From Minisyncoccota bacterium (GTDB taxonomy: Bacteria > Patescibacteriota > Minisyncoccia > JAHIHE01 > JAGLIN01), in the NCBI GenBank assembly GCA_041661265.1, contig JBAZUT010000004.1:63980-127979 (forward strand): DNA of 64,000 bases, given 5' to 3'. Shown here piece by piece: positions 4,687-35,346 of this stretch. The notes below the pieces were generated by a model. The model ran no database searches. It saw only the letters and a program-made list of their open reading frames with translations, and was not told the origin of the DNA. A program made the translations under genes and the position numbers. Each line of letters starts with the position of its first letter. The stretch's first letter is position 1.

Positions 4687-4722
4687 ACAAGATCAAATAT
4701 TTCAAATAATTATATTAAATCG

Positions 4723-15615: not shown

Positions 15616-15729
15616 ATAAGCTTATCAGTTTGCAGCTTCTCGGCTATTTGAAGTATGGAGAAGCTCCGAGATGGAATGTTCGGATATATTTTTTATGAGT
15701 TAAACAGCTAAAAAGCTAAGAAGCTAATC

Positions 15730-16944: not shown

Positions 16945-17049
16945 TGGAATAGTATAAAGTATTCAGTATTAAGTATAAAGCTAAATACTAAATACCAAAT
17001 TTCCAGATCAAGAGATAAAAAATTTAATTATATTTATCGCAATATTATC

Positions 17050-17937: not shown

Positions 17938-17957
17938 TCGGAAATAATATCATATAA

Positions 17958-18467: not shown

Positions 18468-18473
18468 ACGATC

Positions 18474-19028
18474 ATGGCCGGAATAAAGGAAAACGATCCA
18501 ACACGAAAAAAAAACAGCTCGGGATTCACGCTTATCGAGATGGTTATTTATGTCGCTCTTTTCGGAATAATCATGGGGATGATATTCAACATGATATTGT
18601 TTGTCTATGGAATGAACAAAAGAATAACTTCCTATTCGAGCGTGACGGCGGACGCGCATTCGGCAATGGAGCGTATTGTATATGAAGTCACGAATTCCAA
18701 ATATTTCTATCTTCCTACCAGTAATTTCACTAATTATAATTATATTGCCGGAAAAAGCGGACAGCTTTCGATCGCAACGGAAAAATATGCCACTGTGGAC
18801 GACAGCATATCGTTCATGGATTTTTATGTTGAAGGCGGGACGCTTTTCTTGAATATGGACGGGTTTGATCCGGTGCCATTGACTTCGAGCAATGTCACAG
18901 TGTTCGATTTTGATCTCGATTATTTCAAAAATGGCCAGCGCGAATCGGTGAGGATCAGCCTCAAGGCGCGATCAGCGTCAGAGCCTACGATCATGATAGA
19001 TCTCATAAATACGGCTACTATAAGATAA
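18474..19028 (+). CDS. Prepilin-type minor pilin.
   Basis: NSSG|[16 protein letters not shown] with Glu+5; 184 aa. Confidence 0.85.
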
Positions 19029-19032
19029 AAAA

Positions 19033-21093
19033 ATGGGTCCGATAAAAATAGAAAACGACAATAGAGGTTATATCGCGCTGATCACGGTCGCTCTCATGAC
19101 GGGACTTATTTTGATCATTGTCATGGCTTTGACGAACATCGTGATCTCCAAAAGAAATATAAGCAAAAATATCGTATTTTCCGCACAATCTTTTTATTCT
19201 GCGGAATCCGGGCTGGAAGACGCTATATATAGGGAAATGACGCCCTATGATTCGCCTTCAGGTACGCTGACCCTGGACGGGGCTTCTATTGATCAGACCA
19301 GAAATTCGAGTGGTGATACGATCACGATCGAGTCTATTTCCGATTTTTCAAACAACACAAGAAAAATGACGGCAAAGCTCAAGGTTGCCGTTACGACAAA
19401 TGTTAAATTTCGCTATGGCGTGCAGGTGGGTGCGGGCGGATTGTTCATGCATCAAGGTTCCACTATCACGGGTAACTTGTATTCTGATGGCTCCGTGGAA
19501 AAGGGAAGCGGAAGCGCAGCCACGATCACCGGAGATGTTTTCGTCGCCACGGGCATAGAGTTGGACGGATCAGCAGGTAATTGGACTGGACAGACAACTG
19601 ACAAGAATTTTGGACTTAAACAACCTCCTAACACAGAAACCACTGATATCGCAATGCGCTATGTTCCCGAATTTCCTCCGGTGGCGATCTCAGGCGGCGG
19701 GGGATCGGGTGCCAAGGCTACTGCAATTGTCAGCGGAGGTGCGATAGCGTCGATTACTATCACCGCAGGCGGTACAGGATACACATCCCCTCCTGTGATA
19801 TCGATCGGCGGCGGATCGGGAGCGGTTTTTTCCGCTCCGACCATAAGCGGAGGTGCTTTGCAAAATGATATTACAGTCAGTGCGGGCGGAAGCGGATATA
19901 GTTCAACCAGCGGAAATTTATCGCAAGTTTCTTTCTATTTGAAAAGGACGAATACCGAACCGACCGACGGAATGATATATGTCACAGAGGATAATGGCAG
20001 CGGTTCTCCCATGACATCAGCGATCTCAGGCGGCAGTACGCAACTTATAGCTGAGAATATCGGTACCAGTTATAGCTGGGTCAGTTACAGCTTTGCCACG
20101 CCGCCGCTCCTGACAGCTGGATCTACTTATTGGATCGTGATAGATGCGCCTTCTTCAAGTTCGGCTACTAAATATTATTCTGTCGGAAGGTCGGCTGCCA
20201 ATTCGGATATTTCCAAATATAGCGCTCCAAATTGGACCAGTCCCTCCTGGACAACTGATACGGGCCAGGGATATGCATATAAAGCGTGGATCGGAGGGAA
20301 TCCGACTCATATTGATGGCATAACTGTGGGCGGAAACGCTAAAGCCAACACGATACTTAATAGTATTATCGCGGGAGACGCTTATTATAAAACGATAGAT
20401 GACGATACTACGGTCCGTGGATCCCAGTGCCTTAATGCATATTGCCATCCTGGCAGCGAGGATCCTCCTTTTGAAGCCTTGCCTGTTTCTGATGGTAATA
20501 TTACCGATTGGAAAGCGGATGCTTTGGCAGGAGGAACTTTTTCCGATGCGGCTCATTGCAATCCATCTGATGGCGCTGTGATTGGTCCGGCGGTTCTGGA
20601 TTGCGACCTTGTAATTTCTACGGGAAATACTGTGACTTTGGGTGGTACGATCTGGGTGAAGGGTAATATCACCTTCGATGGCAATTTGCAGCTGGATGGC
20701 GGATATGGGACGAAGAGCGGGCTTGTAATTGCCGATTCCACAGATCCTGCCAAGGGAATGATAGATGTCAGCGGTTATGTCTGCGGTTCGCAGGGATATA
20801 ATGGTTCAAATTGCGGCACCTCCAATGATACATATATCATGATGCTGTCAACTCATCCGGGAACCGCCGATAATGCAATTTATGGAGGCGCTCATAGCGA
20901 CGCTTCCGTATATTATGCTACCAATGGCAAGGTAACGATCAAAAATCAGGGTGATGTAAAAGAGGTGACCGGCTACATGCTGGAAATATTACAGAATGCC
21001 AACGTTAGCTATCAGACCGGACTCGCTAATGCCGATTTTACTTCCGGTCCCGGTGGAGGGTGGAGCATAAGCGGATGGAACGAAATTGAATAA
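19033..21093 (+). CDS. Large PilX_N-domain pilus-associated protein (candidate tip or minor pilin with C-terminal extension and Gly-rich repeats).
   Basis: N-terminal hydrophobic anchor plus [17 protein letters not shown] (PilX N-terminal-like motif, compare 35359..35778). Internal about 27-aa repeats [23 protein letters not shown] / [23 protein letters not shown]. 686 aa. Confidence 0.7.
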
Positions 21094-21330
21094 TGTGTTA
21101 TAATAATATTGTATCTGTGAGAAGAAATATGTATCAATAGATTATCGAATTGAGCTGAGGGTAAACTATTGTTACATAATTCAAAAATCAAAAAAGTTGA
21201 TTTTAGAGATTTTTAAATTTTGAATTGTAATTTTGAATTTTTAGTTTTGCATCTTTAATTTTCGCCGCAGACCAGCATTGAACCGCTGTATGCTTGATTT
21301 CGTAATGCGATGATAATTACACTAGAATAA

Positions 21331-22401
21331 ATGATCATGTCAATCTTCAACGACAACATAGCGGCTTTTGGAATGGATCTCAGCGACAGATCCGTCAAGG
21401 TGGCCCAGCTTGGCAAAAAGAACGGGAAAGTGCATCTTTTGTCTTTCGCGCGCAAAGATATTCCCAAGGGGTGGATCGAAGATGGGGAAATAAAGAAAGA
21501 GGATGAGGTTATTGACCTCGTCAAGAAGACCATGAGGGAGGCGAAACCGAGATCTATCAGTTCAAAATACGTGGTTTATTCGATTCCCGAAACAAAAGGA
21601 TTTATCAGGGTGATCAAGATTCCAAAGATAGAAGGAGATAATCTGGAGGAGGCTGTGAAATATGAAGCGGAGCAGTTATTTCCGATTGATATCAGCGAGT
21701 CGTATATCGATTGGCAGGTTCTGTCCGGAGAGGATGGTAAGGTCCTTGAGGTGCTGGTTGCCGCGGTTCCGATGAAGCTGGTGGATTCATATTCTTCGAT
21801 GCTGAGAAAAGCGGGTCTGATGCCGATCACTGCAGAGATCGAGTCTATAGCTATTTCCAGAAGCTTGATAAACGACAGACAGTCGGCGAGGCCGATATTG
21901 ATAATCGATCTTGGCAAGGACAGGACAAGCTTCATAATCTATAAGAATCCTACGGTACAATTCACTGCCAGTATTCCGGTATGCGGGAATGAATTCAATA
22001 AAGCCATATCTGAAACGCTGAACATGAGCGATAATGATGCGGAGGTGTTGAAAAGAAAGTGCGGCCTCAGCGCCAAAGGGGAATGCAAAGATCTGTATAG
22101 GGCGATACAGCCGTCTCTTCATGAAATGATCAAATATATAAACAAACTTTCGGATTATTACAAAGAGCATTACAAGGAAGAGTCAGATATCGCCAAAGTG
22201 ATCATATGCGGCGGAGAGGCGAGGATCCTGGGCATAAGTTCTTTTTTGTCGCTCCGGATAAAAAAAGAAGTGGAAAAGGGAAATCCGTGGGTGAATATAG
22301 TCTTATCTTCGGAAAAAGAGATCCCTCCGATCTCCAGGAACGATTCGCTCATTTTTGTTACGGTGTTGGGTCTTGCAATCAGAGGCATAAGCGAATCATA
22401 A
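21331..22401 (+). CDS. pilM: Type IV pilus assembly protein PilM (actin-like ATPase fold).
   Basis: 356 aa. FGMDLSDRSVKVAQL N-terminal acetate/sugar-kinase-like fold, ...IIDLGKDRTSFII..., C-terminal VIICGGEA. Confidence 0.88.
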   Translation: MIMSIFNDNIAAFGMDLSDRSVKVAQLGKKNGKVHLLSFARKDIPKGWIEDGEIKKEDEVIDLVKKTMREAKPRSISSKYVVYSIPETKGFIRVIKIPKIEGDNLEEAVKYEAEQLFPIDISESYIDWQVLSGEDGKVLEVLVAAVPMKLVDSYSSMLRKAGLMPITAEIESIAISRSLINDRQSARPILIIDLGKDRTSFIIYKNPTVQFTASIPVCGNEFNKAISETLNMSDNDAEVLKRKCGLSAKGECKDLYRAIQPSLHEMIKYINKLSDYYKEHYKEESDIAKVIICGGEARILGISSFLSLRIKKEVEKGNPWVNIVLSSEKEIPPISRNDSLIFVTVLGLAIRGISES

Positions 22402-22417
22402 ACATGATAATCGGAAT

Positions 22418-23053
22418 ATGATAAAAATAAATCTTGTATCAAAAGAGGACAAAGAAAGCCTGAAATGGGAGAAGATCAACAGGATCGCTGTTTCGTATGG
22501 CCTGAAAGTTGTTATTATCCAGGCATTTTTTGCAATTTCCTTGGCGGCTACGATGGTATATTTGAATTATGAAAGAGATATGGCGAAGAATCAGCTCACA
22601 ATGATTGAATCGACAAAGGAGACTCTTGAGATCAAGGAGATGGAGGACAGTTTGAAGAAATATGAAAAAAATCTTAAAGTTGTGACAAATATTCATCAGA
22701 ATCATATCAGATGGACTGATGTCATAGATGCGTTCTCTTTTCTTGTTTCAAAAGGTATAAAAATAAGCAGTATCAGGTTCAGGCCGTACGAACAAGAAGT
22801 GGCTGGAATAAGCAATAAGGCGAAAACTAAAGTGGTTGTTGACAAAGGCAGATATATTTTTGAAGTTACAGGCGAGGCTTTGAAAAGGGAAGATCTTGTC
22901 GTGTTTGAAAATCAATTGAACGAAACTAAAGTGTTTAATATTTTAGAAACAGGAGATCCGGCATATAATAAATATGTTAATTCGGAAAATATTGGTTTTA
23001 AGTTCAATTTTGAAGTTGCACGTGAAGATCTTGCTAAAATATCGGGGGAATAA
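22418..23053 (+). CDS. pilN: PilN-like bitopic pilus alignment protein.
   Basis: 211 aa. Short cytoplasmic N-terminus that could bind PilM, single TM, periplasmic coiled coil; directly follows pilM. Confidence 0.7.
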   Translation: MIKINLVSKEDKESLKWEKINRIAVSYGLKVVIIQAFFAISLAATMVYLNYERDMAKNQLTMIESTKETLEIKEMEDSLKKYEKNLKVVTNIHQNHIRWTDVIDAFSFLVSKGIKISSIRFRPYEQEVAGISNKAKTKVVVDKGRYIFEVTGEALKREDLVVFENQLNETKVFNILETGDPAYNKYVNSENIGFKFNFEVAREDLAKISGE

Positions 23054-23060
23054 ATATTTT

Positions 23061-23615
23061 ATGAACAAAAAAAAACAAAAAACATATATCAATATTGCGA
23101 TCCTTATTCTTGTTGCAGGCGGTATGTTCTATTTTATGAGTCAATACCTGTTGGCTTATATCGGAAACATGAGCAATGAGGTGGTTGTTGCGAAAAAGAA
23201 TACTGTGCTGATAACCGAACGGAATAAAAAGATCGATGAGGTCCGGCGCAACTATAATAACATCGAAAAAGAGATCGGTGTGATCTCGGATACTTTTGTG
23301 AAAAAGGATTATCAGAAAGTCGGAGAGATGTTCATGGAGTTGGAAGAAATAGCCCGGATGAATAATATTGTACTTATAAAAAATCCGGCGCAAAAACCTG
23401 AGGAAAAGATGGGAAACAGTATTTCAGCGGCATATTTCACTATGTCCTCGAATGGCGGATTTGACGACATGATGAGGTTCTTGCTTTATCTGGATAATTT
23501 CAGGTATTATATAGATCTGAATAATATTCAAATGTCTGGTACGGGCGAAGATCAAAACGGTATCACCCAGGTGGTAATGAACGCGGAGCTTCAGGTCTAT
23601 CTTGACAGTAAATAG
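23061..23615 (+). CDS. pilO: PilO-like bitopic pilus alignment protein.
   Basis: Start chosen at MNKKKQK (23061) rather than the overlapping 22974 start. Single TM, coiled coil, C-terminal ferredoxin-like region; follows pilN. Confidence 0.7.
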   Translation: MNKKKQKTYINIAILILVAGGMFYFMSQYLLAYIGNMSNEVVVAKKNTVLITERNKKIDEVRRNYNNIEKEIGVISDTFVKKDYQKVGEMFMELEEIARMNNIVLIKNPAQKPEEKMGNSISAAYFTMSSNGGFDDMMRFLLYLDNFRYYIDLNNIQMSGTGEDQNGITQVVMNAELQVYLDSK

Positions 23616-23623
23616 GAACAAAT

Positions 23624-24088
23624 ATGAAAAAAATCGAAATAAATTCGAGAACCTTGAATAAAATGGCGCTTTGGATAGTCGCAAAAAGAGGTGTTTTTTT
23701 GATCGTTTTTTTTGGCGCTCTTTTGATATATAGTTTCGATGTGATCTATAAAAATGCATATATCAAATTGGAATACATCGATTATTCGAATAGCGCGGTT
23801 ATCTTTGATGGAAGGAAAGAAAGCGCTGTGATCACAAAGATCACTGATAGTTTGCGGGAAAAAGATGCCATTATAAACAAAGCTTTAGATAAAGAGTATA
23901 AAGATATTTTCGTATATGAGGTTATTCAGAAAGCGGAGAATTCCGTGCCTCTGGAAACAGAATATAGCACAGAACGCCCTGTTTCCGAGAACGCGGATGG
24001 CTCAGCCGCAGGCGTGGGCGCAGCAGAGGGGGGCAATGCGGGAAGTCCGATAGATCCCGGCATAATAGTGGATGAAACGGTCAAATAG
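23624..24088 (+). CDS. Small bitopic membrane protein at the end of T4P cluster 1 (PilP-like position).
   Basis: 154 aa. N-terminal TM (LIVFFGALLIYSF); C-terminal low-complexity acidic/Gly tail. Family not recognised. Confidence 0.5.
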   Translation: MKKIEINSRTLNKMALWIVAKRGVFLIVFFGALLIYSFDVIYKNAYIKLEYIDYSNSAVIFDGRKESAVITKITDSLREKDAIINKALDKEYKDIFVYEVIQKAENSVPLETEYSTERPVSENADGSAAGVGAAEGGNAGSPIDPGIIVDETVK

Positions 24089-24166: not shown

Positions 24167-24238
24167 GTCCCCGTAGTTCAATGGATAGAACGGGAGCCTT
24201 CTAAGCTCTAGATGTAGGTTCGATTCCTACCGGGGATA
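24167..24238 (+). tRNA. tRNA-Arg (anticodon TCT).
   Basis: Cloverleaf read directly: acceptor GTCCCCG/CGGGGAT (one G-U pair), D-arm GTTC-aatggata-GAAC, anticodon stem GGAGC/GCTCT with loop cTTCTaa, T-arm GTAGG-ttcgatt-CCTAC, discriminator A; no encoded CCA. Confidence 0.85.
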
Positions 24239-24417
24239 CATAGAAAGTTAAAAATGCAAAGATCAAATATCAAAAATTTGGAATACGGTACATTTCAAAT
24301 GGGAGAAACCTTGACCTGTTTATTTGCCAAGAGGCGGATTTAGCGAGATGAGGAAAACGCGTGTCCGCCCACTGGCGGAGGATTCTTTCGAAAATGGAAG
24401 CATGATGCTGAAAAAAA

Positions 24418-24453: not shown

Positions 24454-24482
24454 TTGCGATAACGCGTTTTTTGTGGTATAAT
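24454..24482 (+). promoter_or_regulatory. Sigma70-like promoter with extended -10 (TTGCGA, 17-nt spacer, TGgTATAAT).
   Basis: tgtggtataat at 24472-24482, about 28 nt upstream of the preferred ATG (24510) of the HAMP protein gene. Confidence 0.45.
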
Positions 24483-24509: not shown

Positions 24510-26036
24510 ATGGAAGCCCAAAACAAAGAAAAAACCGCAAGGCATCAAAATAAAATAAAATTCAGTTTCGGAAACCTGAAGATCAGAAATAAGATAATTT
24601 TTGGTTTTTTTATTGTATCGATAATATCCGGACTGGCCAATTATTACAGCAATTCTTTCATAGTCAATGAGTTCAGGGCGGTGAACAATACTATGCACAT
24701 GTTTCATAACATATTTGCATTGCAAAAGAAGTTGGAGATAATGGTGGAGGGATATGTTTCGTCGGAAACGAAAGAAAGCATACCGGATTCTGAATTTCAG
24801 GATATATATATGGAAATTGAGAAAGAATTCGGTGATTTTATGTCTTCCGGAGGTTCGTTTCTGAACGAAGACCTGACTGCAAGGTACACGAGTGAAAGCG
24901 CATCTTTCTTTGAAAAAGAATCGGATGTGGTAGAGGTTCATAAGCGGGAGATAGCAGCCAGAATTTCAATGATCCGGCTTCAGGCGGAAGAAAAAGAAAA
25001 AAGATATGTGATCAGGAGATACGTGGAGGATCTGGGTGACGGCGATATGTATACCGCATTTTTGTATTCCGAATACGTAAGTAAGGAAATGTTGTATCAG
25101 TATAAAGATACCGAACATGCAAAGCGATGGATCGAGGCTTTGGATAAAGTGAAAGAAGCCGCAGCTCAGAGGTTGATCGACATACCCGGATTTGATGATT
25201 ATCGTGATATAGCGCTCAAGACCTCGGAAGCGGTCGTGTTGCTTGAATCGATCGCCCGGGAAGAGCAAAAAAAATTAGATGATTTCAGATTTTCCATTGA
25301 AGGCTTGAACGACATACAGGACGAGCTCTCCAAAGAGCTCACAAACCAGAACCTGTCGGAGATCAACACGATCGTACTTATGGGAGTTTTTGTATTTATT
25401 TTCATATTGGTTTTTTTCACCGTGCTATTCGGATATATACTGTCGAGTTTTGTTTCAAGGCCTATCAGGGAACTGTCCGAATTCGCATTGATGGCCGCGA
25501 AAGGTAATTTCAAGCGAAGGATAGGCGTGGATACGCACGATGAGATCGGACAAGTGGCGGAAGCATTCAATTTAATGCTCGATAAGGTTGAAGAGTCAAC
25601 GCAGGTGCTCGAAGTGAAGGTTGATGCGAGAACAAAGCGGCTTGAGGAACTGTCCAGGAATCTTGAAGCTCAAATAGACAGCAAAACCAAAGAATTGAAT
25701 GAAAAAATAAATGAACTGGAAAGGTTTAATGACCTAGCGGTCGGGCGGGAACTCCGTATGATCGAACTTAAAAGGGAAATGGAAATAATAAGGCAGGGAA
25801 AGGGATCGGAAAAGGAAAAAAAGAAAGGTGCGGAAGTTTCAGGCGACAAAATAATGAATTGCTGGGATTTTTGGAAATGCGGGAAAGAAGTTCGTGAAAA
25901 ATGCCCGGCATATACAACGAAATCAGGAAGGGAATGCTGGCTAGTTTCGGCCGGAAAGTGTCCGCGTTCAAAAGAAAGGGGATTTGAGGATTGCAAAGAT
26001 TGCGGATGGTATAAGAAAATAAATAATATCGGTTGA
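24510..26036 (+). CDS. Membrane signal-transduction protein: N-terminal TM, sensor region, TM, HAMP domain, long coiled coil, C-terminal Cys/Trp-rich module (7 Cys); no catalytic output domain.
   Basis: HAMP signature RPIRELSEFALMAAKGNFKRRIGVDTHDEIGQVAEAFNLMLDKV; coiled coil VLEVKVDARTKRLEELSRNLEAQI...; tail CWDFWKCG...C...CWLVSAGKC...CKDCGWY. Start moved to ATG 24510 (the 24471 ORF start lies inside the putative promoter). Confidence 0.75.
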   Translation: MEAQNKEKTARHQNKIKFSFGNLKIRNKIIFGFFIVSIISGLANYYSNSFIVNEFRAVNNTMHMFHNIFALQKKLEIMVEGYVSSETKESIPDSEFQDIYMEIEKEFGDFMSSGGSFLNEDLTARYTSESASFFEKESDVVEVHKREIAARISMIRLQAEEKEKRYVIRRYVEDLGDGDMYTAFLYSEYVSKEMLYQYKDTEHAKRWIEALDKVKEAAAQRLIDIPGFDDYRDIALKTSEAVVLLESIAREEQKKLDDFRFSIEGLNDIQDELSKELTNQNLSEINTIVLMGVFVFIFILVFFTVLFGYILSSFVSRPIRELSEFALMAAKGNFKRRIGVDTHDEIGQVAEAFNLMLDKVEESTQVLEVKVDARTKRLEELSRNLEAQIDSKTKELNEKINELERFNDLAVGRELRMIELKREMEIIRQGKGSEKEKKKGAEVSGDKIMNCWDFWKCGKEVREKCPAYTTKSGRECWLVSAGKCPRSKERGFEDCKDCGWYKKINNIG

Positions 26037-26062
26037 TAAATATTAATTAATAACAAATAAAT

Positions 26063-27241
26063 ATGGGAATAAAAGCTGGAGTCGGGGTCAGTCTGAAGAC
26101 TGATTCAAAACAAGCCGGGATCGAGGCGTGCAATAATGCGTTAAATGGCGCATCTGATCCGGGATTGATGATCGTTTTTTGTTCCGTGAAGCATAATCAG
26201 GAGGAAGTTGTAGCGGGAGTGCGGGAGGTTAGCGGAAAGACTCCTCTTATTGGGTGCAGCAGCGCGGGCGAGATCACGAACGAAGGCGTATATGACGGCA
26301 GTGTTGCGGTTATGGCCATAGAATCCGACCAAATGAAGGTTGTTCTTGCGTCCGGCGGAGAGGTGAAACCGGGAGCCAGGCAAGCCGGAGCCAAACTTGC
26401 GGAAAATCTGAAAAGCCAGTATTTTTTTGACAGCAAATATGTTTTATTTCTCACTGACGTTTTGACCGGGAACGGAGCCGATGTTGTAAGGGGTATGAAA
26501 GACGTTCTCGGAAAAGATTATTTCATTGTCGGAGGAGCCGCAGGAGATGATTTTCTTTTTAAGGAAACGTATCAATATCTTAATGATAAGGTCTTAAGAT
26601 CTTCAGTGGTTGGGGCCGGAATATCGGGGAATACCGCGGTTGGTGTCGGTGTCAGGCATGGATGGTCGCCGATCGGCATTCCAATGAAAGTTACGAAATC
26701 AAAAGGAGCGGTACTCGAAGAATTGGATGGAAAACCGGCGCTTTCAATATATGAAGATTATTTCGGAAAAAAAGCGGAAGAGATCAAGAAAGAACCTTTG
26801 GCCAGGATGGCTATCACATATCCTTTGGGCATGGACGTTGAGGGAAATTCGGAACTTCTGATCAGGGATCCGATCACGGTGGATGAAAAGGGAGCTATAA
26901 CTTGCGCCGCGGAAATACCGCAAGGGTCCGAGATCAGGCTTATGATAGGGAGCAAAGAGGATGCAATAAAAGCCGCAAAAGATGCTGCGATGCAGGCCAA
27001 AGAACAGCTGAAGGGAAAAGAGGCGAAGGCTGTTGTTATTTTTGATTGCATCGCGCGCAAGAAGCTTTTTGGAAAAGATGCTTTTGACGAGATCAAGGCT
27101 ATAAAAAGCGTTTTGGGGGAAAATGTTCCGATATTGGGATTCTATACGTATGGAGAGATCGCTCCTCTCGGAGGAGATGTCTCCAGCTGCAATTCAAGTT
27201 TCCACAATGAAACTTCGGTTATTCTGGCCCTTGGAGAGTAG
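26063..27241 (+). CDS. Stand-alone FIST-domain protein (FIST_N plus FIST_C sensor).
   Basis: 392 aa. Gly-rich segments GCSSAGEI, VGGAAGDDF, GFYTYGEIAP typical of FIST N/C domains; no fused output. Confidence 0.7.
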   Translation: MGIKAGVGVSLKTDSKQAGIEACNNALNGASDPGLMIVFCSVKHNQEEVVAGVREVSGKTPLIGCSSAGEITNEGVYDGSVAVMAIESDQMKVVLASGGEVKPGARQAGAKLAENLKSQYFFDSKYVLFLTDVLTGNGADVVRGMKDVLGKDYFIVGGAAGDDFLFKETYQYLNDKVLRSSVVGAGISGNTAVGVGVRHGWSPIGIPMKVTKSKGAVLEELDGKPALSIYEDYFGKKAEEIKKEPLARMAITYPLGMDVEGNSELLIRDPITVDEKGAITCAAEIPQGSEIRLMIGSKEDAIKAAKDAAMQAKEQLKGKEAKAVVIFDCIARKKLFGKDAFDEIKAIKSVLGENVPILGFYTYGEIAPLGGDVSSCNSSFHNETSVILALGE

Positions 27242-27288
27242 CGACCTTTCCGGCCCCCGGTTTTGTTTGACTAAGTTCATATATTATT

Positions 27289-28701
27289 ATGCCCGAAAAG
27301 TATCTGCAAAAAAAACAATCGGATGAGAAGAATTATGAAAACCTGCTTATTGAAATGGATAAGACGGCTAAGCTTTTGGTCAGGCGCGATCTTGAATTGA
27401 ACAGGGTCAATGCAGAGCTTGATGAAACGATCTATCAGCTCAAAGAAGATGAGAAAAAATTGAAAGAAATGAATGAGGTCTTGGAGATCAGGCTTAATGC
27501 AAGAACGAAGGAGCTGAGGGAAAACATCCTGTCTCTCGACGGCCAGGTAAAAGAAAGGACGAGGAAGCTTGAAAACTCGAAGATCGCGCTTATGAACATA
27601 CTTGAAGATTTCAGGAGGCAAAAAATATTGACGGAAGACGAGCAGAAGAAGAATCTCGCGATCATCAACAATTTCCCGGATGGGCTGCTGATATTCGATA
27701 ATCACAACAAGCTGTCGATCATAAACAAAAAAGCGAAGGAATATCTTGGAATTTCCCAGCTCGATTATATCTATCATGAATCATGGGACGTTGAAAATGT
27801 GCTTGAATTCAAGAGCCTTATGAAAGTGATCGGCAGCGACATAAAGATCGTTTTTAAGGAAGAACTTGATATGGGCCCTGAGCTTATTCTCGAGGTTTCG
27901 GTTCAGGAATATTCGGAGATGAGCATGAGGTATGGAAAATTCGTCATTCTTCACGACATCACAAGGGAAAAAAAGGTCCAGTCGCTGAAAAGCGAATTTG
28001 TTTCAATAGCTGCGCATCAGCTGAGGACCCCGCTTTCCGCCATAAAGTGGACGCTGACCTCGCTTCTGGATGGAGATTTCGGAGCTCTCAGCGATGATCA
28101 GAGAAAATATCTCGGAAAAACCAATTTATCCAACGAAAGGATGATAAATCTGGTTGACGACCTATTGAATCTTTCGAGGATCGAAGAGGGCAGATATATA
28201 TACAAAACGTCCGTTGCTTCCATATATGACCTGCTAAATACGGTCCTGAAAGCGGTTGAACTTAAAGCGAACGAAAAAAAGATCAAATTAAGCACCAGTA
28301 TCGACAAACATCTTCCTGATCTGACGATCGATGAGGAAAAGATAAAACTGGTGATGCAGAATCTGGTCGAAAATGCGATAAACTACAGCCGCCGGGAAAG
28401 TTCCGTAAAGATTGAGGTTACTGATGATATAAATAAGAACGAAGTGATATTTTCCATAAAAGACAGCGGCATAGGGATACCGGAAGACCAAAGAGAAAGG
28501 ATCTTTACGAAATTCTTCAGAGCGGAAAATGCGGTAAGGGCGGAAACCGTAGGGTCGGGACTGGGGCTTTTTATTGATAAAAATATCATTGAAGCCCATA
28601 AAGGGCGAATATGGTTTGAATCGGAATTGGATAAGGGTTCGACGTTCTATTTCACCATACCTTATGCCAAAAAGGATGAGCAGTTTTTCGGTAAATTCTA
28701 G
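27289..28701 (+). CDS. Cytoplasmic sensor histidine kinase (coiled coil, PAS, HisKA, HATPase_c).
   Basis: No TM. Coiled coil VLEIRLNARTKELRENILSL... closely resembles that of the 24510 protein. PAS-like region then H-box SIAAHQLRTPLSAIKW, N-box NAINYS, G-box GSGLGLFI. Confidence 0.88.
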   Translation: MPEKYLQKKQSDEKNYENLLIEMDKTAKLLVRRDLELNRVNAELDETIYQLKEDEKKLKEMNEVLEIRLNARTKELRENILSLDGQVKERTRKLENSKIALMNILEDFRRQKILTEDEQKKNLAIINNFPDGLLIFDNHNKLSIINKKAKEYLGISQLDYIYHESWDVENVLEFKSLMKVIGSDIKIVFKEELDMGPELILEVSVQEYSEMSMRYGKFVILHDITREKKVQSLKSEFVSIAAHQLRTPLSAIKWTLTSLLDGDFGALSDDQRKYLGKTNLSNERMINLVDDLLNLSRIEEGRYIYKTSVASIYDLLNTVLKAVELKANEKKIKLSTSIDKHLPDLTIDEEKIKLVMQNLVENAINYSRRESSVKIEVTDDINKNEVIFSIKDSGIGIPEDQRERIFTKFFRAENAVRAETVGSGLGLFIDKNIIEAHKGRIWFESELDKGSTFYFTIPYAKKDEQFFGKF

Positions 28702-28793
28702 TGATGTTTTTTGGGCATTCTGAGTATAACCGAATTTGTAAGAATAAATTAAAAACTGTATAATATGAATAGTTAACAAATAAGTGCACAAAT

Positions 28794-29174
28794 ATGGCAA
28801 AGAAAATAATGCTTATAGAAGATGAAGAAATATTGTCGGGTCTTCTCAGGCGAAAACTTGAAGAAAATGGATATGAGGTTATAGTCGCATTTGACGGGGA
28901 GGAAGGCATCGAGATAATGAAAAAACAGAGGCCGGACCTGGTATTATTGGATATAGTTATGCCGAAAATGGGAGGATTTGAGGTGATGGAAGAAATGAAC
29001 AAGATACCCGAGTTGAACCTAAAAGATCTCCCTGTCATAATCGTTTCGAATTCAGGCCAGCCCGTGGAGATCGGAAAGGCGCAAGAATTGGGAATAAGGG
29101 ACTATCTGATAAAGACGCAATTCGATCCGCAGGAGGTTGTTGACAAGGTTAAAAAATATTGCCTGAACGAGTAA
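28794..29174 (+). CDS. Single-domain response regulator (CheY-like receiver).
   Basis: 126 aa. IEDEE, LVLLDIVMPKMGG, IIVSNSG, DYLIK. Confidence 0.88.
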   Translation: MAKKIMLIEDEEILSGLLRRKLEENGYEVIVAFDGEEGIEIMKKQRPDLVLLDIVMPKMGGFEVMEEMNKIPELNLKDLPVIIVSNSGQPVEIGKAQELGIRDYLIKTQFDPQEVVDKVKKYCLNE

Positions 29175-29194
29175 TTCACTATTAAAATAAAAAT

Positions 29195-29923
29195 ATGTTT
29201 CTACCGCTAACCGGCATCGTTCATCTTGTGAATTCGGCCATGATCTATATGTGCTATTTAAAGCTTAATAAAACATATAAGGACATGCAAATCAAGGATG
29301 AGGCGCTGAAATATCTGCTGTGGTTCATATTATATGTGGATATATTTCAGATTCTTGTCGGGATTGGCCATTTGCCGATATTGTTCGGTATGACGGATAT
29401 TTTTTATTATACATTCAACTTCGGGTATATCGTCGGGCATATTTTCCTTTATATGGCCGAGGCTTATATAGTTCTGGTGCCGATGTACCTATATTTTTCG
29501 AAAAGCGATTTTGAAAAATACGGCGTGAATTATTCCAGGTTTTTGCTGATATTCGGGGCCATCATAACGATCATTAATGTTATGATGCCCACAAATCCCG
29601 TATTTGATGAAAAGACGGGAGTTACTATTTTCAATGTGCCTTCTTTAGTGGCGAATCTTATTCCGATCATAACGATCATATCGGTTGGATTTTCGGGCAT
29701 ACTTTTTTTGGCGAAATCCGTTAAGCTTCAGGGAAGTGCAAAGGTTAAGGCGATAATCTTGGGAGTTGGGATGATCATGATCGTTATCGGGGGACCTATG
29801 CATGAGACTGCAAAGAACATATTCGAGTATTTTTTGGCCGATTTCCTGATCGTAGTCGCATTTTTCATCGTAATGCTGGGAATTTATTACGAGCAGTTCA
29901 GCTCCAAGGTGCAAAAGAAATAA
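29195..29923 (+). CDS. Polytopic membrane protein (about 6-7 TM), no soluble domain; paralogue-like neighbour of 29968..30708.
   Basis: 242 aa, hydrophobic throughout; embedded between signalling genes. Family not recognised. Confidence 0.5.
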   Translation: MFLPLTGIVHLVNSAMIYMCYLKLNKTYKDMQIKDEALKYLLWFILYVDIFQILVGIGHLPILFGMTDIFYYTFNFGYIVGHIFLYMAEAYIVLVPMYLYFSKSDFEKYGVNYSRFLLIFGAIITIINVMMPTNPVFDEKTGVTIFNVPSLVANLIPIITIISVGFSGILFLAKSVKLQGSAKVKAIILGVGMIMIVIGGPMHETAKNIFEYFLADFLIVVAFFIVMLGIYYEQFSSKVQKK

Positions 29924-29967
29924 TGTATCCGAATATTTCCACGATTAAAATAAGGTAGCAAATATTT

Positions 29968-30708
29968 ATGGTCATACCAATCGAAAGCATTGATAAATTA
30001 ATGGCGTTCTCTGTTGATTTTATATGCGGTATCTGGCTTTATTGCGCTTATGTTAAAAAAGGAAGATCGAATGAGAATTTGAAGAGCTTGTTTATTTTCT
30101 TTGTATTGATGTCGGCATATGAACTATTCGCGGCGGCAGGGATGTTGCTTCTGACGCTTGACGTGGCGGAGGTGTCCGTGCCATTGTATAATGCTTCATA
30201 TGTCATAGCGTATTTACTTTTATTTTTCGCATATGCTGAGTTAATATCCGTTGCATTAAGATTATATTTTGAAACGGCGGAATTAGTCATAAATGTCAGG
30301 AAATATTATCAGGCAATTATCGTGATATTCGGCCTTGTAATAATCATTGTAAGCGCTTTCTATCAGGCAAAGCCGTCATTCGATCAAGAAACTTTTTTGA
30401 TCAGTGCGAACCATGATCCGTTTGTTTATAAAATGATGGTGGCGATGATCCTGATCTCAATGTTTCCGTCTTCGCTTCTTCTTGCGGGAAGATCATTTTT
30501 TGCAAAACAAAATACTAGGGCTTATGTGATCATGGGGGCTGGTGTGGGGCTGTCACTTGTCGGGCAGCTATTAAACAATAACCTGCGGAGTATGGTTTAT
30601 GTGATGATTGCCGATGCGGCGGCAATAATAGGATTGATCATGTTATTCTATGGTGCGAATTTGACCGATGTTTTATGCAAACACCAAGTCAATTTAATTA
30701 AGAAATAA
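29968..30708 (+). CDS. Polytopic membrane protein (about 7 TM), no soluble domain.
   Basis: 246 aa; same size and topology class as the preceding gene. Possible 7TM sensor module (inference). Confidence 0.5.
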   Translation: MVIPIESIDKLMAFSVDFICGIWLYCAYVKKGRSNENLKSLFIFFVLMSAYELFAAAGMLLLTLDVAEVSVPLYNASYVIAYLLLFFAYAELISVALRLYFETAELVINVRKYYQAIIVIFGLVIIIVSAFYQAKPSFDQETFLISANHDPFVYKMMVAMILISMFPSSLLLAGRSFFAKQNTRAYVIMGAGVGLSLVGQLLNNNLRSMVYVMIADAAAIIGLIMLFYGANLTDVLCKHQVNLIKK

Positions 30709-30712
30709 GCAT

Positions 30713-31543
30713 ATGAATGAAAAGGTCTTGATAATCAAGGACAGCGAGGGGTGTTCCGAAAGCCTGAAGACGGGACTGGAAAATGAGAATTATGACGTTA
30801 TTGTGTTTGAGGATGGGGAGGGTGTTATGAAGGTGATCAGAGAATACAAACCCCAATTGATAATCCTGTTCGCGCTTTATAATAAGCTTACGGAATATTA
30901 TATCATAAAGGAGAAGCGGGAAATGCTTGATGAGGAGTCCATACCTCTTATGATAGTTACGAATACGGACAGGGGATCAGAGATCGAGGGTGTTTTTCAT
31001 TTCGGAGCCGTAAATTGTATTTTGAAGGGGGATTTTAATGCCAAAGAGATCGTAAATAATGTTAATGAATATTTTATGAGCCATAATACGGATAAAACTA
31101 TGCCAAAAAACAATATGGAAAATAAAACCATCAAAGAGATCGGCGAAGAAGTTAAAAACAAGGGTCTCAGGGTTCTTTTGGTGGAGGATGACGAGTTTCT
31201 GCGCGATATATGCAAGAGGAAACTGGAAATCGAGGGGTTTAATGTTTCAGTCGCGGTTGATGGAGCTCAGGCCCTGAAAAAAGTTGAAGAGGAGGATCCG
31301 CAGATGATACTTCTTGATGTAATTTTGCCGGGATTGGACGGATTTGAGATATTAAAAGCCGTGAAAGCGAATCCCGCAAGGGCAAAAACTCCCGTGATAA
31401 TGCTGACAAATCTTGGACAGACCAGCGAGGTTGAAAAGGGGCTGAGCCTCGGGGCGGATGAATATATTGTGAAGGCGCATTTTACGATCGGAGAGATAAT
31501 CGAAAAGATTAAAACTGTCATGAAGAGAAAGAACATAAAATAA
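30713..31543 (+). CDS. Tandem-receiver protein: degenerate N-terminal pseudo-receiver plus canonical C-terminal REC domain, no output domain.
   Basis: The second half has VEDDE, ILLDVILPGLDG, LTNLG, YIVK. The first half has receiver-like length and secondary-structure pattern but lacks the conserved acidic pocket and phospho-acceptor context. Confidence 0.75.
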   Translation: MNEKVLIIKDSEGCSESLKTGLENENYDVIVFEDGEGVMKVIREYKPQLIILFALYNKLTEYYIIKEKREMLDEESIPLMIVTNTDRGSEIEGVFHFGAVNCILKGDFNAKEIVNNVNEYFMSHNTDKTMPKNNMENKTIKEIGEEVKNKGLRVLLVEDDEFLRDICKRKLEIEGFNVSVAVDGAQALKKVEEEDPQMILLDVILPGLDGFEILKAVKANPARAKTPVIMLTNLGQTSEVEKGLSLGADEYIVKAHFTIGEIIEKIKTVMKRKNIK

Positions 31544-31570
31544 TAGTTCGAATATAAAAAAAGACAGGGG

Positions 31571-32983
31571 TCAAAATCCCTGTTTTTTTATTATTCCTCT
31601 TGCTGCAATGATGCCCGTAGCGGATGCATTGACTATATCCCTTGATAGACCAGCTCCATCTCCTGCGGCAAAAAGATTATTTATGGATGTCTCCATGTTT
31701 GTGTCGACTATCACTTCCATCGAATAGAACTTAACCTCAGGCGCGTACAGAAGCGTTGAATCTGCGGCCACGCCGGGTATGATCTCGTTCAATATCTCGA
31801 GCCCTTCTTTTATATCGGTTACGATACGATGCGGAAGCGCCATGGAGATATCTCCGGGAGTAACGTCTTTCAGCGTATTTCTTACGTGATTGTCCTCGAT
31901 CCTTTTTGCAGTGCTCCTTCTTCCTTTTTTGAGATCGCCCAGTTTCTGGATTATCGGTTTTTTACCGCCGATAGTATTTGCCAGTTTTGCGATCGAGCGC
32001 GCATATTTCAGAGTATTCTCTATTGGTTCGGTCAGTTCGACGTGGACGAGGAAGGCGAAATTCGTGTTCTCGGAGACCTGATTTGTCATCGAATGGCCGT
32101 TCGTCGCCACAAGGTCGTTGTATTCTTCCTTTACGACAAATCCTTTCTCATTCGTGCAAAAGGTCCTGACGAAGTCGTCGAATGTTTTTGTCCGAATGTG
32201 GAATTTCGGGTCGTGATTTATTTTTGTGATCGGGTCCATGGTCACGGCCTGAACTTCAACCCTGACGCCGACATCCGCAGGGGAATATTTTGCCTTAAGG
32301 GAATGCTTGTTTATGATCTCTTCGGTCCAAGATGCTCCGATCCTTCCCGGTGCAATGATGACATATTTGGACCTTATTCTGATCCTCCTTGCCCTGTTTC
32401 CCGCTGTTTTTTCTTTGATGATGACGCCTTCACAGGTCTTTTTTTTCACAATTATGTCGGCCACGCCCGTGTTGAATTTGAAGATCACGCCTCTTCTCTT
32501 CAAGTCTTCGATGAAATGTTTTATGACGACGGGCGCCTGATCCGAGCCGATATGTCTCTGTTTGATCTCTATGAATTTAGCTCCGAACGACGCGGCTTTG
32601 CGCTTCAGGTCCTCAACTTCTTTTCCTTTCGGAATGAACAGACGGTCCGGCGCGCCATATTTCACAAAGATTGTGTCGACAAGATCCACGAGGGTGTTTG
32701 CGTATATCTCGCTTCCTGTCTGCTTTGCCAGGTCTCCTCCGATATCGGGCCTCAAATTGAGAGTGCCGTCGGAGAATGTACCGCTTCCCCCCGCTCCGCT
32801 CATAATGTTGCAGATGCGGCATTTCGCGCACAGATTGCCGTTGTTTTTCATGATACACTTACGTTCATTTATGTCAGGCCCCATGTCTATGACAAGGACT
32901 CTGCATTTTTCAGCAAGCTCGTTTGCTGCAAAGATGCCTCCCGGGCCCGCACCGACTATTATTACGTCGAATTTATCTTCCAT
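31571..32983 (-). CDS. FAD-dependent oxidoreductase (COG2509-type uncharacterised FAD-dependent dehydrogenase).
   Basis: N-terminal dinucleotide-binding VIIVGAGPGGIFAANEL...VLVIDMG, Cys cluster CAKCRIC, C-terminal FAAGDGAGLSRDI FAD motif; 470 aa. Confidence 0.75.
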   Translation of the reverse strand: MEDKFDVIIVGAGPGGIFAANELAEKCRVLVIDMGPDINERKCIMKNNGNLCAKCRICNIMSGAGGSGTFSDGTLNLRPDIGGDLAKQTGSEIYANTLVDLVDTIFVKYGAPDRLFIPKGKEVEDLKRKAASFGAKFIEIKQRHIGSDQAPVVIKHFIEDLKRRGVIFKFNTGVADIIVKKKTCEGVIIKEKTAGNRARRIRIRSKYVIIAPGRIGASWTEEIINKHSLKAKYSPADVGVRVEVQAVTMDPITKINHDPKFHIRTKTFDDFVRTFCTNEKGFVVKEEYNDLVATNGHSMTNQVSENTNFAFLVHVELTEPIENTLKYARSIAKLANTIGGKKPIIQKLGDLKKGRRSTAKRIEDNHVRNTLKDVTPGDISMALPHRIVTDIKEGLEILNEIIPGVAADSTLLYAPEVKFYSMEVIVDTNMETSINNLFAAGDGAGLSRDIVNASATGIIAARGIIKKQGF

Positions 32984-33336: not shown

Positions 33337-33867
33337 TTACTTTTTTAAAAATATCGAAGCTCCGATCGTCATCAGGTCGGGAGCGGCATCGGTGTCCTGA
33401 GAATTTCTGATCTCGATCCTGTTTATTTTCGTAAGATGTGGAAGCTTGGAAAAACCATCGGTAAACCTAGAAAAGAATTCCTTCTTTCCCGAAAAAATTA
33501 CCGTGAAATTAAGTTTGTTCGTATTCGGGCTGAAAGATTCGGGGTTATTATCGAATTTGATCGTATTGCTTCCCCCAAGCTCGAGGGACAGTTTATCAAT
33601 CCTGTCAATGAGATCATCCATATCGTCTATTCCCGGAAACAGACTTCTTGCTTTTGGAAGGCCATCGCTTACTATCGCATAGTCCTTTTTCAGATTAACA
33701 AAATTGCTTTCCCGTTTATCGAGAGAAATAACCATGTTGCGCCTTTGGGAGATCTGGTTGACCTCTGCGGATATTTTGTCTTTCATTACAAAAAGCGCGA
33801 GCGTGGAGGAAATGGCCGCAATAATGACGAAAGCTGAGATCTTTATGATTGGCTTGGATATCGGCAT
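33337..33867 (-). CDS. pilO: PilO-like pilus alignment protein (cluster 2).
   Basis: 176 aa. N-terminal TM, coiled coil, C-terminal domain; follows the PilM-N gene in the same orientation. Confidence 0.65.
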   Translation of the reverse strand: MPISKPIIKISAFVIIAAISSTLALFVMKDKISAEVNQISQRRNMVISLDKRESNFVNLKKDYAIVSDGLPKARSLFPGIDDMDDLIDRIDKLSLELGGSNTIKFDNNPESFSPNTNKLNFTVIFSGKKEFFSRFTDGFSKLPHLTKINRIEIRNSQDTDAAPDLMTIGASIFLKK

Positions 33868-33870
33868 ATG

Positions 33871-35346
33871 TTATTTTATATACATCGTAAGATTGAAATT
33901 TATGTCGCTTTTTTTCGCAATATCCGATGAAGACAGAGAAGCGTTAAAAAAATCATCAGAAGCGGCTACAGTATTCTTGAAATACTTGTATCCTTCCCTG
34001 GATGATGATATTCCGGATATGTTTATCGTTTTTGCCAGGTCGTTTATGCTGATGTTCGAAAAGGATATTCCGGTCGTTGCGAGCCTGTTTATCTTTCCGA
34101 TCAGTTCGGAGTGATCAGTTTGCGACAGGGATCTGATGCTGCTGATATCGGAAATGTATCCGTTAAACTCTTTTGTGTCAGTTTCCATTTTGAGGTATTC
34201 TGCGGATATCGGGACACTGTTCTTTACATTCAGCTGATTTGTGAGGCCGGCTTCAAGCGATGTTATGAATATAAAGAATGCTATGAATATTGAAACGTAG
34301 AAGACCGATAAGGACGATATAAAGAAAAGTATTGATTTCGAAAAAGATATGGCTTTTTGGGTTTCGTACAGGCTTTCGGTCCCGACAGGGAGAAGGCTTA
34401 TTATGGTGTCGTCGCTTCTGGGTATGAAAGCTCTTGCGGCGGCGCCTGCAACAGGAAGCCAGTCGCTGTTTTCAAGGGATTTGATCTTGATACTCGTTTT
34501 TTCAATGGGGATCTGGATCTTCCCTATCTTTTTGATCAGGGCGTCTGTATTGAAACCCTGGCTGACAATAAGCGCTTTTTCTATGCCGATGGATCCGTTC
34601 TTGCTTTCGAAATACAGAGAGAGTGTGACGATCTTCGCTTTAATTACAGTTTTGAGATCGTTCAGGTTTTTTATGGGTTTTCCAGCTGATGCTTCCCGCC
34701 ATGTTTCAAATTGGCTGAAATAGGGCCGCTTGTTTTGATATATCGTGCTGCTTATGCCCTCGTCCGTGAGATGTATCAGGGCAATAGGGGACTCCGGCAG
34801 ATCAATCACTCTTTCCAGGCTGAGGAAGTATGTTTCGAGCGCGATAAGTTCGAATGAACTCGCCTTCAACGCTTCGATATATGCATCGATCAATGTTTTT
34901 TTTGCCAAAGAAACAAGGACCTGTTTTTTGCCGTTGATCTCGCCGACAATCTCCCAGTCAAAATAGCATGAAGACAGCGGGAATGGAAAGCTGTCGGATG
35001 CGTTCGTGGTGATCGCTTCGAGAAGCTGTTCGCTGTCGAGGATCTTCGGGAATTCCAGGATCTTGCTGTATATCCTGTTGGGCGGGATCGTGACCACTGC
35101 GAAGTTTGAAAGAAGTTTTTTCGGAGCGAACGTTTTTTTCAGCTTCTCCAGCGCCACAACCAGTTTTTTCTTGTCCGTGATCTCTCCTGAGGCGATTATG
35201 CCGTCATCGAGCTCAACCTCGGATCTTCCCTTGATGGAGATATTGCCATAAGCGTCCTGCTGCAAATAAAACATCCTCAGTTTCTCGCTGCTTATATCGA
35301 TCCCTACGATCTTTTCTTTTGGAACAAGGAGTTTTATCAGGTTCAT
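33871..35346 (-). CDS. pilM: PilM-PilN fusion protein (actin-like PilM domain plus TM plus PilN-like periplasmic domain).
   Basis: 491 aa. N-terminal PilM-like fold (IVGIDISSEKLRMFYL, ...IALIHLTDEGISSTI...), central TM (ILFFISSLSVFYVSIFIAFFIF), C-terminal about 130-aa periplasmic region. Confidence 0.75.
   Translation of the reverse strand: MNLIKLLVPKEKIVGIDISSEKLRMFYLQQDAYGNISIKGRSEVELDDGIIASGEITDKKKLVVALEKLKKTFAPKKLLSNFAVVTIPPNRIYSKILEFPKILDSEQLLEAITTNASDSFPFPLSSCYFDWEIVGEINGKKQVLVSLAKKTLIDAYIEALKASSFELIALETYFLSLERVIDLPESPIALIHLTDEGISSTIYQNKRPYFSQFETWREASAGKPIKNLNDLKTVIKAKIVTLSLYFESKNGSIGIEKALIVSQGFNTDALIKKIGKIQIPIEKTSIKIKSLENSDWLPVAGAAARAFIPRSDDTIISLLPVGTESLYETQKAISFSKSILFFISSLSVFYVSIFIAFFIFITSLEAGLTNQLNVKNSVPISAEYLKMETDTKEFNGYISDISSIRSLSQTDHSELIGKINRLATTGISFSNISINDLAKTINISGISSSREGYKYFKNTVAASDDFFNASLSSSDIAKKSDINFNLTMYIK

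Follow-up and report, generated by a model that had tools for sequence, protein, structure and literature searches.

FIST proteins bind and control the kinase encoded next to them, as NosP does with NosK (PMC12570481). In the NosP/NosK(NahK)/NosR systems, the kinase lacks a sensor domain and is controlled by a stand-alone FIST haem sensor encoded together with it. The canonical sensor-HAMP-S-helix-PAS-HisKA-HATPase kinases (WalK/PhoR-like) carry sensor and kinase in one chain. The S-helix is defined by a central 'ERT' signature in a heptad coiled coil (PMC1592074).

The locus considered here occupies positions 24510–31543 of the window, that is, of the whole analysed stretch of 64,000 nucleotides. 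It consists of seven ORFs of the same direction with intergenic gaps of 4–92 nt, and a promoter-like site and a terminator with a 14-bp stem enclose all seven genes (Table 1). Every gene and domain listed in the initial annotation was recovered in place. The components are mostly of known types, and it is their arrangement that is unusual.

Table 1. Features of the locus (window coordinates)
Feature	Position	Strand	Evidence
Promoter-like site TTGCGA-17-TATAAT, TG upstream	24454..24482	+	Consensus match only, 10/12 positions
Gene 1, membrane sensor, 508 aa, without enzymatic output	24510..26036	+	ORF, profile and hydrophobicity evidence
HAMP domain, aa 311-361	25440..25592	+	Pfam PF00672, 45.2 bits vs cut-off 25, 1.1e-11
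Coiled coil on the cytoplasmic side, aa 362-430, with a pair of S-helix 'xRT' repeats ahead of the conserved FNDLAVGRELRMIELK motif	25593..25799	+	
Two-CW domain, aa 449-505, seven Cys: CW..W.C, C, CW, C, C..C	25854..26024	+	NCBIfam NF045718
Gene 2, stand-alone FIST_N + FIST_C protein, 392 aa, NosP-like architecture	26063..27241	+	Pfam
Gene 3, soluble histidine kinase, 470 aa: N-terminal coil, PAS, HisKA, HATPase_c	27289..28701	+	Pfam/NCBIfam
Kinase N-terminal coiled coil, aa 1-120, no sensor domain upstream	27289..27648	+	
Gene 4, REC-A, single-domain receiver, canonical Asp, Ser, Lys	28794..29174	+	Pfam, CheY alignment
Gene 5, 7TM protein A, 242 aa, N-out/C-in (predicted)	29195..29923	+	AlphaFold2
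Gene 6, 7TM protein B, 246 aa, paralogue of A	29968..30708	+	
Gene 7, pseudo-receiver aa 1-~125 fused to canonical REC-B aa 154-266	30713..31543	+	Pfam, CheY alignment
Bidirectional terminator-like hairpin, 14-bp stem, T runs on both sides; closes the operon	31558..31589	.	

We favour, with a probability of roughly 55%, the reading of the locus as a multi-protein 'split' two-component system, where separate sensors act in trans on a soluble kinase. The architecture (domain content, operon-like layout, conserved adjacency, fused homologues, generic coil) is well supported, and from it we infer the following mechanism. The engine would be the soluble coil-PAS histidine kinase with the receiver-only REC-A and REC-B, and the sensing modules would be separately encoded proteins working on this kinase in trans. 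The cytoplasmic coil of the membrane sensor, ending with GRELRMIELK, would be coupled physically to the kinase by docking on its N-terminal coil, at a presumed surface. The FIST protein may modulate autophosphorylation of the kinase, as NosP does for NosK, in response to putative ligands. The two-CW tail would give the membrane sensor a further, dispensable input, and both 7TM proteins, like the pseudo-receiver, would be lineage-specific additions. The output would come from phosphorylated single-domain receivers via protein-protein interaction, with the type IV pilus machinery encoded nearby as a plausible target.

Gene 1 encodes, in this order, TM1, some 235 aa of extracytoplasmic domain with the 'YQYKD' motif, TM2, HAMP, two S-helix repeats, the 'ELERFNDLAVGRELRMIELK' motif and the two-CW tail. 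The protein has two hydrophobic segments, at approximately aa 25–47 and 285–315, and its HAMP domain scores above the gathering threshold directly behind TM2. The FNDLAVGRELRMIELK motif of the coil is present in 24 of 35 homologues; this end of the sensor coil, 'ELERFNxLAVGRELRMIELK' or, in short, GRELRMIELK, is a previously undescribed motif.

Gene 3 encodes a class I histidine kinase with an intact H-box, 'AAHQLRTP', in the translation and no hydrophobic segment. The HisKA (60.5 bits) and HATPase_c (97.2 bits) domains are above threshold, and the PAS match is weak. The N-terminal 120 aa contain 'LLVRRDLEL', two S-helix repeats and 'ALMNILED'.

The canonical kinases have the same parts in the same order, including the 'ALxNILED' helix. 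In the window, by contrast, the chain is cut into two genes with the FIST gene between them; each half retains two S-helix repeats, and the sensor half gains GRELRMIELK and the two-CW tail. An uncut homologue is P0018, a single protein of 785 aa. Its N-terminal half is similar to the HAMP protein (E 9e-19, covering aa 20–388 of the latter) and its C-terminal half to the kinase (E 1e-66, aa 86–458). Further fused sensor-HAMP-kinase genes are found in five metagenome loci (L042, L044, L045, L047, L069).

The sensor and kinase genes are adjacent in orthologues of 72%, 62% and 38% identity, and the sensor-kinase-REC adjacency is kept in L001, L002, L003, L004/L005 and L038–L041. Two further HAMP-coil-two-CW subfamilies with different sensor domains (L004; L038–L041) also adjoin the kinase; in all, three separate HAMP-coil-Cys-tail subfamilies have genes for a soluble PAS kinase and for REC proteins behind them. 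The same C-terminal coil motif occurs in other output-less sensors, and in five of seven such loci (L010, L011, L012, L073, L075) a kinase and a REC gene lie at most four genes downstream, the kinase being a soluble PAS kinase in four of them and a dCache_3 hybrid in L075. No kinase lies close to the two coil-tail sensors of L009 and L074. Gene order, whose conservation had been proposed as a check, recurs in relatives for sensor, kinase and REC. The conserved core is the kinase with the receiver-only REC-A and REC-B; the lineage-specific genes for FIST, the 7TM proteins and the pseudo-REC fall outside it.

The initial annotation derived the split sensor from the mirrored coils of genes 1 and 3. 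The similarity is real. The coils share 24 of 70 residues (34%, E 8e-6), and both carry a tandem pair of S-helix repeats, identically ordered, with the signatures DARTKRL and DSKTKEL in the sensor and NARTKEL and KERTRKL in the kinase. The resemblance is kept in orthologues, both coils being conserved in six loci; moreover, the kinases of the window family and of L004 have no upstream domain that could feed the S-helix. These observations would suit a dedicated heteromeric coiled coil in which the matching S-helices from the two proteins pair up and carry the signal, but we consider it unlikely. Judging by the signatures, which are of the ERT type (ART/SKT in the sensor, ART/ERT in the kinase; Anantharaman, Balaji and Aravind 2006), the shared coil is a widespread generic S-helix motif. 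The kinase coil matches non-cognate, unrelated sensors at 18–20 of 50 positions versus 15 of 50 for its own neighbour, and cognate pairing is not enriched, as 52 of 720 permutations over the six loci are as good. The gene 1 copy follows HAMP and has no enzymatic domain behind it, whereas the gene 3 copy opens the kinase, with no recognised domain upstream. S-helices usually join two domains inside one polypeptide, and neither copy lies between two signalling domains of its chain. Finally, the kinases of L010, L011 and L038 pair with their sensors while lacking the N-terminal S-helix mirror, hence docking, if any, cannot rest on the S-helix motif. The mirror is a conserved similarity and does not itself support coupling or the split sensor. 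The proposal of one sensor divided between the membrane HAMP protein and the soluble kinase is nevertheless supported by the conserved adjacency and by P0018 and the other fused homologues.

Gene 2 has strong matches to FIST_N (6.5e-53) and FIST_C (1.8e-39). On the NosP equivalog model NF041558 it scores 94.5 bits, far below the cut-off of 450, and a sequence search of the PDB yielded no FIST structure. The layout is nevertheless NosP-like: a stand-alone FIST gene immediately precedes that of the soluble histidine kinase, and REC genes come after. As noted initially, the FIST gene separates the HAMP gene from the kinase gene; a FIST gene beside a kinase gene is the known NosP/NosK arrangement (PMC12570481). 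Unlike the latter, the locus lacks a c-di-GMP-output response regulator, adds the membrane HAMP sensor and the 7TM proteins, and belongs to a group whose more distant orthologous operons lack FIST. The FIST gene adjoins the kinase in the window, L001, L002 and L013, and is absent from L003, L004 and L038. In L038 and L073 the slot is occupied by V4R-like proteins (weak Pfam matches only), and in L012 by proteins without a Pfam match that, judged by eye, are of the same family. At the level of sequence, the co-sensor slot thus appears interchangeable, FIST or V4R-like.

An alternative is that FIST and the kinase are the sole functional pair, as in NosP/NosK, and that the HAMP-two-CW protein is independent or merely shares the operon. 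Control of a kinase by FIST has a precedent, and the two-CW domain is mostly stand-alone and occurs also on MCP, REC and TrmB proteins, so it can work without this kinase. Yet in L003, L004 and L038, which have no FIST, the kinase gene still comes after that of the HAMP-two-CW protein, and the fused homologues tie the sensor-HAMP region to the kinase directly. We regard this alternative as even less likely than the heteromeric coil, and retain the split system with several sensors acting in trans.

The tail of gene 1, taken initially for an unusual seven-Cys module, has no Pfam relative and no PDB match. It is none of the known zinc ribbons, but NCBIfam already has an entry for it, the uncharacterised 'two-CW domain' (NF045718). 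The match (E 3.8e-6, 27.2 bits) is below the curated cut-off of 35, as are those of the orthologous CPR tails (23.8–28 bits). The profile built from the window tail recovers 720 clusters, spread across anaerobic bacteria and archaea, including sequences that pass the cut-off (P0058, 41 bits; P0041, 42; P0110, 51; P0180, 91). In an alignment of 127 sequences, six cysteines (C7, C13, C21, C32, C51, C54) show conservation of 98% or more. With both CW motifs, the same six conserved cysteines and this transitive link to above-cut-off members, the gene 1 tail can be classed as a short, divergent member of the family. The CPR tails differ from it in length, about 57 aa versus the 80 positions of the model, and in being fused to a HAMP sensor, while the two-CW domain usually forms a stand-alone protein of 60–90 aa. 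The model of the tail has pLDDT of 84. A literature search for 'two-CW domain' or 'DVU0259' returned nothing. Most likely, the tail would be a redox-sensitive module that binds a metal or an Fe-S cluster.

It is improbable that the tail itself is the coupling device, docking on the kinase or FIST in a metal- or redox-dependent way: it is the best conserved region of the gene 1 protein (78% mean column identity over nine tails), and signalling proteins of several kinds end in this domain, but L012 lacks it while the orthologous L038 system with the same kinase type has it, it has decayed in L013, and the 47 neighbours of 12 stand-alone two-CW genes include no recurring Pfam family and no recurrent kinase. 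Being optional in related systems, the tail is probably an extra input to the split system.

Genes 5 and 6 had been described as two adjacent output-less 7TM-like proteins, and this is confirmed. The AlphaFold2 model of gene 5 (pLDDT 90.4, pTM 0.87) has seven TM helices in a GPCR-like bundle with a small extracytoplasmic beta-hairpin, and gene 6 is paralogous (22% identity, E 9e-16); 7TM protein B is missing in L001. Asp216 is invariant in the 7TM proteins. The suggested search for a known 7TM sensor family, 7TMR-DISM or another Pfam 7TM family, gave no profile match. Neither gene matches any Pfam family at E up to 0.1 or any NCBIfam model, and at E up to 5 no family is common to more than two of 13 members of this 7TM family. 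Compared to 7TMR-DISM, 7TMR-HD and GPCR-fold proteins, genes 5 and 6 lack a fused output or extracellular domain. The GPCR-fold structural matches have about 8% sequence identity to the window 7TM protein and share the general fold alone.

REC-A is 62–90% identical across related systems, and 62–68% identical between systems whose kinases share 42–52%. D57, T87 and K109 of CheY have aligned counterparts in REC-A and in the C-terminal receiver of gene 7, both of which are expected to be phosphorylatable. The N-terminal domain of gene 7 has Phe at the position of Asp57 and Lys at that of Asp12 in the window, L001 and L002, and so lacks the acceptor, while its orthologue in L003 retains Asp at the D57 position. 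The predicted degenerate-plus-canonical double receiver is thus borne out by the CheY alignment.

Type IV pilus genes adjoin the locus in the window, L001, L002, L010, L011, L073 and L075. Since CPR genomes are small and carry many pilus genes, this adjacency could be coincidental. A literature search returned nothing on CPR two-component systems with pili.

The window comes from a tiny uncultivated bacterium of Candidatus Paceibacterota (CPR). The CPR/Patescibacteria live as episymbionts and have tiny genomes; their type IV pili are probably important in attachment and in the uptake of DNA. To our knowledge, little is known about how they sense the host or the environment. As a tentative and rather doubtful generalisation, Patescibacteria sensor kinases may be assembled from separately encoded plug-in parts: membrane sensors with the docking-coil motif given above, some of them with a Cys6-7 two-CW metal/redox domain; a FIST/V4R-like slot; one conserved soluble kinase; a highly conserved CheY-like receiver controlling type IV pili; and, in this lineage, recruited GPCR-fold 7TM partners. 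If true, a kinase-receiver cassette with interchangeable separate sensors would be a compact way to integrate several inputs. The C-terminal coil motif, the two-CW Cys domain and the small GPCR-like 7TM family offer targets for experiments.

The split of sensor and kinase was also considered as an assembly or frameshift artefact and this was rejected, as a whole FIST gene lies between the halves and the same layout is seen in independent assemblies. The gene 1 orthologues start at the same MEAQNKEK, and hence ATG at 24510 is favoured as its start. The alternative TTG at 24471 was rejected on the same grounds and because the promoter-like site overlaps it. This promoter-like site is situated immediately 5' of gene 1.

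The initial annotation described a signalling island of seven genes, and domain searches bear out both the island and the domain content given for each gene. The HAMP protein encoded first is 100% identical to an NCBI protein labelled 'Candidatus Paceibacterota bacterium', which assigns the window to a CPR bacterium. None of the seven start codons has a visible Shine-Dalgarno-like GGAGG in the 25 nt upstream, and in all seven cases these nucleotides are A/T-rich.

Features of the signalling island, and small soluble proteins between sensor and kinase at comparison loci (positions without a locus name are those of the window)
Feature	Position	Strand	Description
tRNA-Arg(TCT)	24167-24239		separates the signalling operon from the pilus cluster upstream
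Promoter-like site	24454-24482	+	upstream of the seven-ORF region
Seven co-directional ORFs	24510-31543	+	intergenic gaps 4-92 nt
HAMP protein	gene 1		TM-sensor-TM-HAMP and Cys-rich tail (domain searches)
FIST protein	gene 2		FIST_N and FIST_C (domain searches)
Kinase	gene 3		soluble, coil-PAS-HisKA-HATPase (domain searches)
REC-A	gene 4, 28794-29174	+	one REC domain
7TM A, 7TM B	genes 5 and 6		hydrophobic; no family assignment (domain searches)
Double receiver	gene 7		pseudo-REC and REC-B (domain searches)
Hairpin	31558-31589		14-bp stem, closes the seven-ORF region
Small soluble protein	L038 3629-4228		weak Pfam V4R match
Small soluble protein	L073 8043-8519		weak Pfam V4R match
Two small soluble proteins	L012 3334-4563		similar to the L038 protein by eye

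The proposal that the HAMP protein and the kinase form a split sensor is supported by comparison of gene orders and by gene fusions. The order of the HAMP protein with its two-CW tail, kinase and REC is repeated in the orthologous loci L001, L002 and L003 (72%, 62% and 38% identity), and again in two more subfamilies of such HAMP proteins, L004/L005 and L038-L041, whose sensor domains are unrelated. In the 785-aa protein P0018, the N-terminal part aligns with residues 20-388 of the HAMP protein (E 9e-19), followed by an alignment with residues 86-458 of the kinase (34% identity, E 1e-66), and a window-type sensor domain is fused to a kinase core at five further loci (L042, L044, L045, L047, L069). 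Our confidence in regulation of the kinase by the HAMP protein is about 0.55.

The other argument for a split sensor, the mirrored coiled coils, proved generic. The resemblance itself is real: residues 359-427 of the HAMP protein match residues 57-126 of the kinase with 34% identity (E 8e-6), and each protein has two tandem 'LE..V.aRTkeL' repeats. These repeats are the S-helix, which is recognised by 'ERT' in its central heptad (PMC1592074), and the motif is kept in both sensor and kinase at six loci. However, all sensor-kinase pairs from these loci, cognate or not, share 14-21 of 50 positions, and no cognate enrichment was found, the diagonal sum being reached in 52 of 720 permutations. The window kinase coil shares 18-20 of 50 positions with coils from unrelated sensors (P0013, P0015, P0016, P0021), against 15 of 50 with that of its own neighbour. 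Since non-cognate coils match equally well or better, the likeness reflects homology of a widespread module rather than a partner-specific signature, and coupling through a specific S-helix heteromer, as initially suggested, is unlikely.

Residues 401-430 of the HAMP protein (25710-25799) contain a conserved C-terminal motif, ELE(K/R)FNxLAVGRELRMIELKxEI, which has no Pfam match and ends many output-less membrane sensors whose input domains differ widely, including P0014-P0032 and those of L009-L012 and L073-L075. Of the 35 homologues, 24 have the motif. The C-terminal module 'S-helix + ELE(K/R)FNxLAVGRELRMIELK' is common to many sensors of this output-less type, whose inputs are dCache, 4HB, flavodoxin-TM or dCache_3. 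In five of seven inspected loci with such coil-tail sensors, kinase and REC genes lie at most four genes downstream, the kinase being a soluble PAS kinase in L010, L011, L012 and L073 and a dCache_3 hybrid kinase in L075; in L009 and L074 there is no such pair within four genes downstream. The kinases of L010, L011 and L038 lack the N-terminal S-helix but have a common 'ALxN(I/M)LED' helix. If a docking surface exists, the sensor-terminal GRELRMIELK and the N-terminal helix of the kinase would be better candidates than the mirrored S-helices.

The terminal motif is one of three uncharacterised elements of the system, the others being the two-CW domain and the 7TM family. The Cys-rich tail scores 27 bits against the two-CW model (NCBIfam NF045718), whose cut-off is 35. 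A profile built from this tail and its small relatives found 720 clusters among 1.84 billion representative proteins, and several hits (P0058, P0041, P0110, P0180) pass the curated cut-off. Stand-alone proteins of 60-90 aa make up most of the 150 best hits listed, and no recurrent family was found among the neighbours of the stand-alone genes. In the fusions among the matches listed the domain is always C-terminal, following HAMP proteins, MCP signalling domains (in one case accompanied by CZB), REC, REC-PAS or TrmB. Six cysteines are at least 98% conserved and the seventh 58%. Close relatives occur in Paceibacterota, Moranbacteria, Saccharibacteria, Omnitrophota, Anaerolineales, DPANN archaea and Thermoplasmatota. 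The tail is missing in L012, while present in the orthologous L038 system, and in L013, another Paceibacterota genome, its coding region (3960-4160) and the HAMP gene are in different frames, and the region also has an internal stop codon and one Cys replaced by Tyr, so that either the tail is decaying or the assembly is in error. Hence the tail is an optional module. Its cysteine pattern, its position in the cytoplasm and the uncultivated lineages carrying it suggest metal or Fe-S cluster binding and a redox-sensing role.

Among the loci compared, only the window, L001, L002 and L013 encode the FIST protein. Its slot is filled by small V4R-like proteins in L038 and L073, and by two proteins without Pfam matches in L012. 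NosP-type FIST proteins bind to a neighbouring kinase, whose autophosphorylation they modulate (PMC12570481). The window protein has the same architecture and gene context, although its score against the NosP equivalog model is 94.5 bits, with a cut-off of 450. The island as a whole is a two-component system whose auxiliary sensors follow the NosP pattern.

The core common to all systems is the kinase and two receivers. Across the window, L003, L004, L011, L012, L038 and L041, the single-domain receiver that follows the kinase (REC-A in the window) shows 62-68% identity, compared to only 42-52% for the kinase cores, which suggests a strongly constrained downstream partner. REC-A and the C-terminal domain of the double receiver are canonical. 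The N-terminal domain of the latter, aligned with CheY, has Phe in place of Asp57 and Lys in place of Asp12; since the more distant L003 orthologue retains the Asp, the degeneration is recent.

The two 7TM proteins are paralogues. There are two such genes in the window and L002, one in L001, and none in L003, L004 and L038. The family is narrow, comprising orthologues at 68-89% identity and one homologue (42%) in an unrelated context. The structure predicted for 7TM A (pLDDT 90.4, pTM 0.87) comprises seven TM helices, with TM4 and TM5 separated by a small hairpin. Loops 1-2, 3-4 and 5-6 are rich in Lys/Arg, which points to an N-out/C-in orientation.

Upstream of the island lies a type IV pilus set (13822-24088, plus strand: PilB, PilC, pilins, PilM with PilN/O-like genes), and downstream a second set, a PilM/PilO-like pair (33337-35346, minus strand). 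An oxidoreductase gene of the FAD-dependent type (31571-32983, minus strand; domains Pyr_redox_2 and FAD-depend_C) converges on the operon terminator. Both the two-set pilus flank and the oxidoreductase, in the same position, recur in L001 and L002. As pilus genes also adjoin the L010, L011, L073 and L075 systems, a pilus-related output is plausible but unproven. Finally, genes for periplasmic solute-binding proteins directly precede coil-tail HAMP sensors in L038 (Phosphonate-bd, 1448-2569) and L009 (SBP_bac, 4248-5345), hinting at ligand delivery to these sensors by binding proteins.
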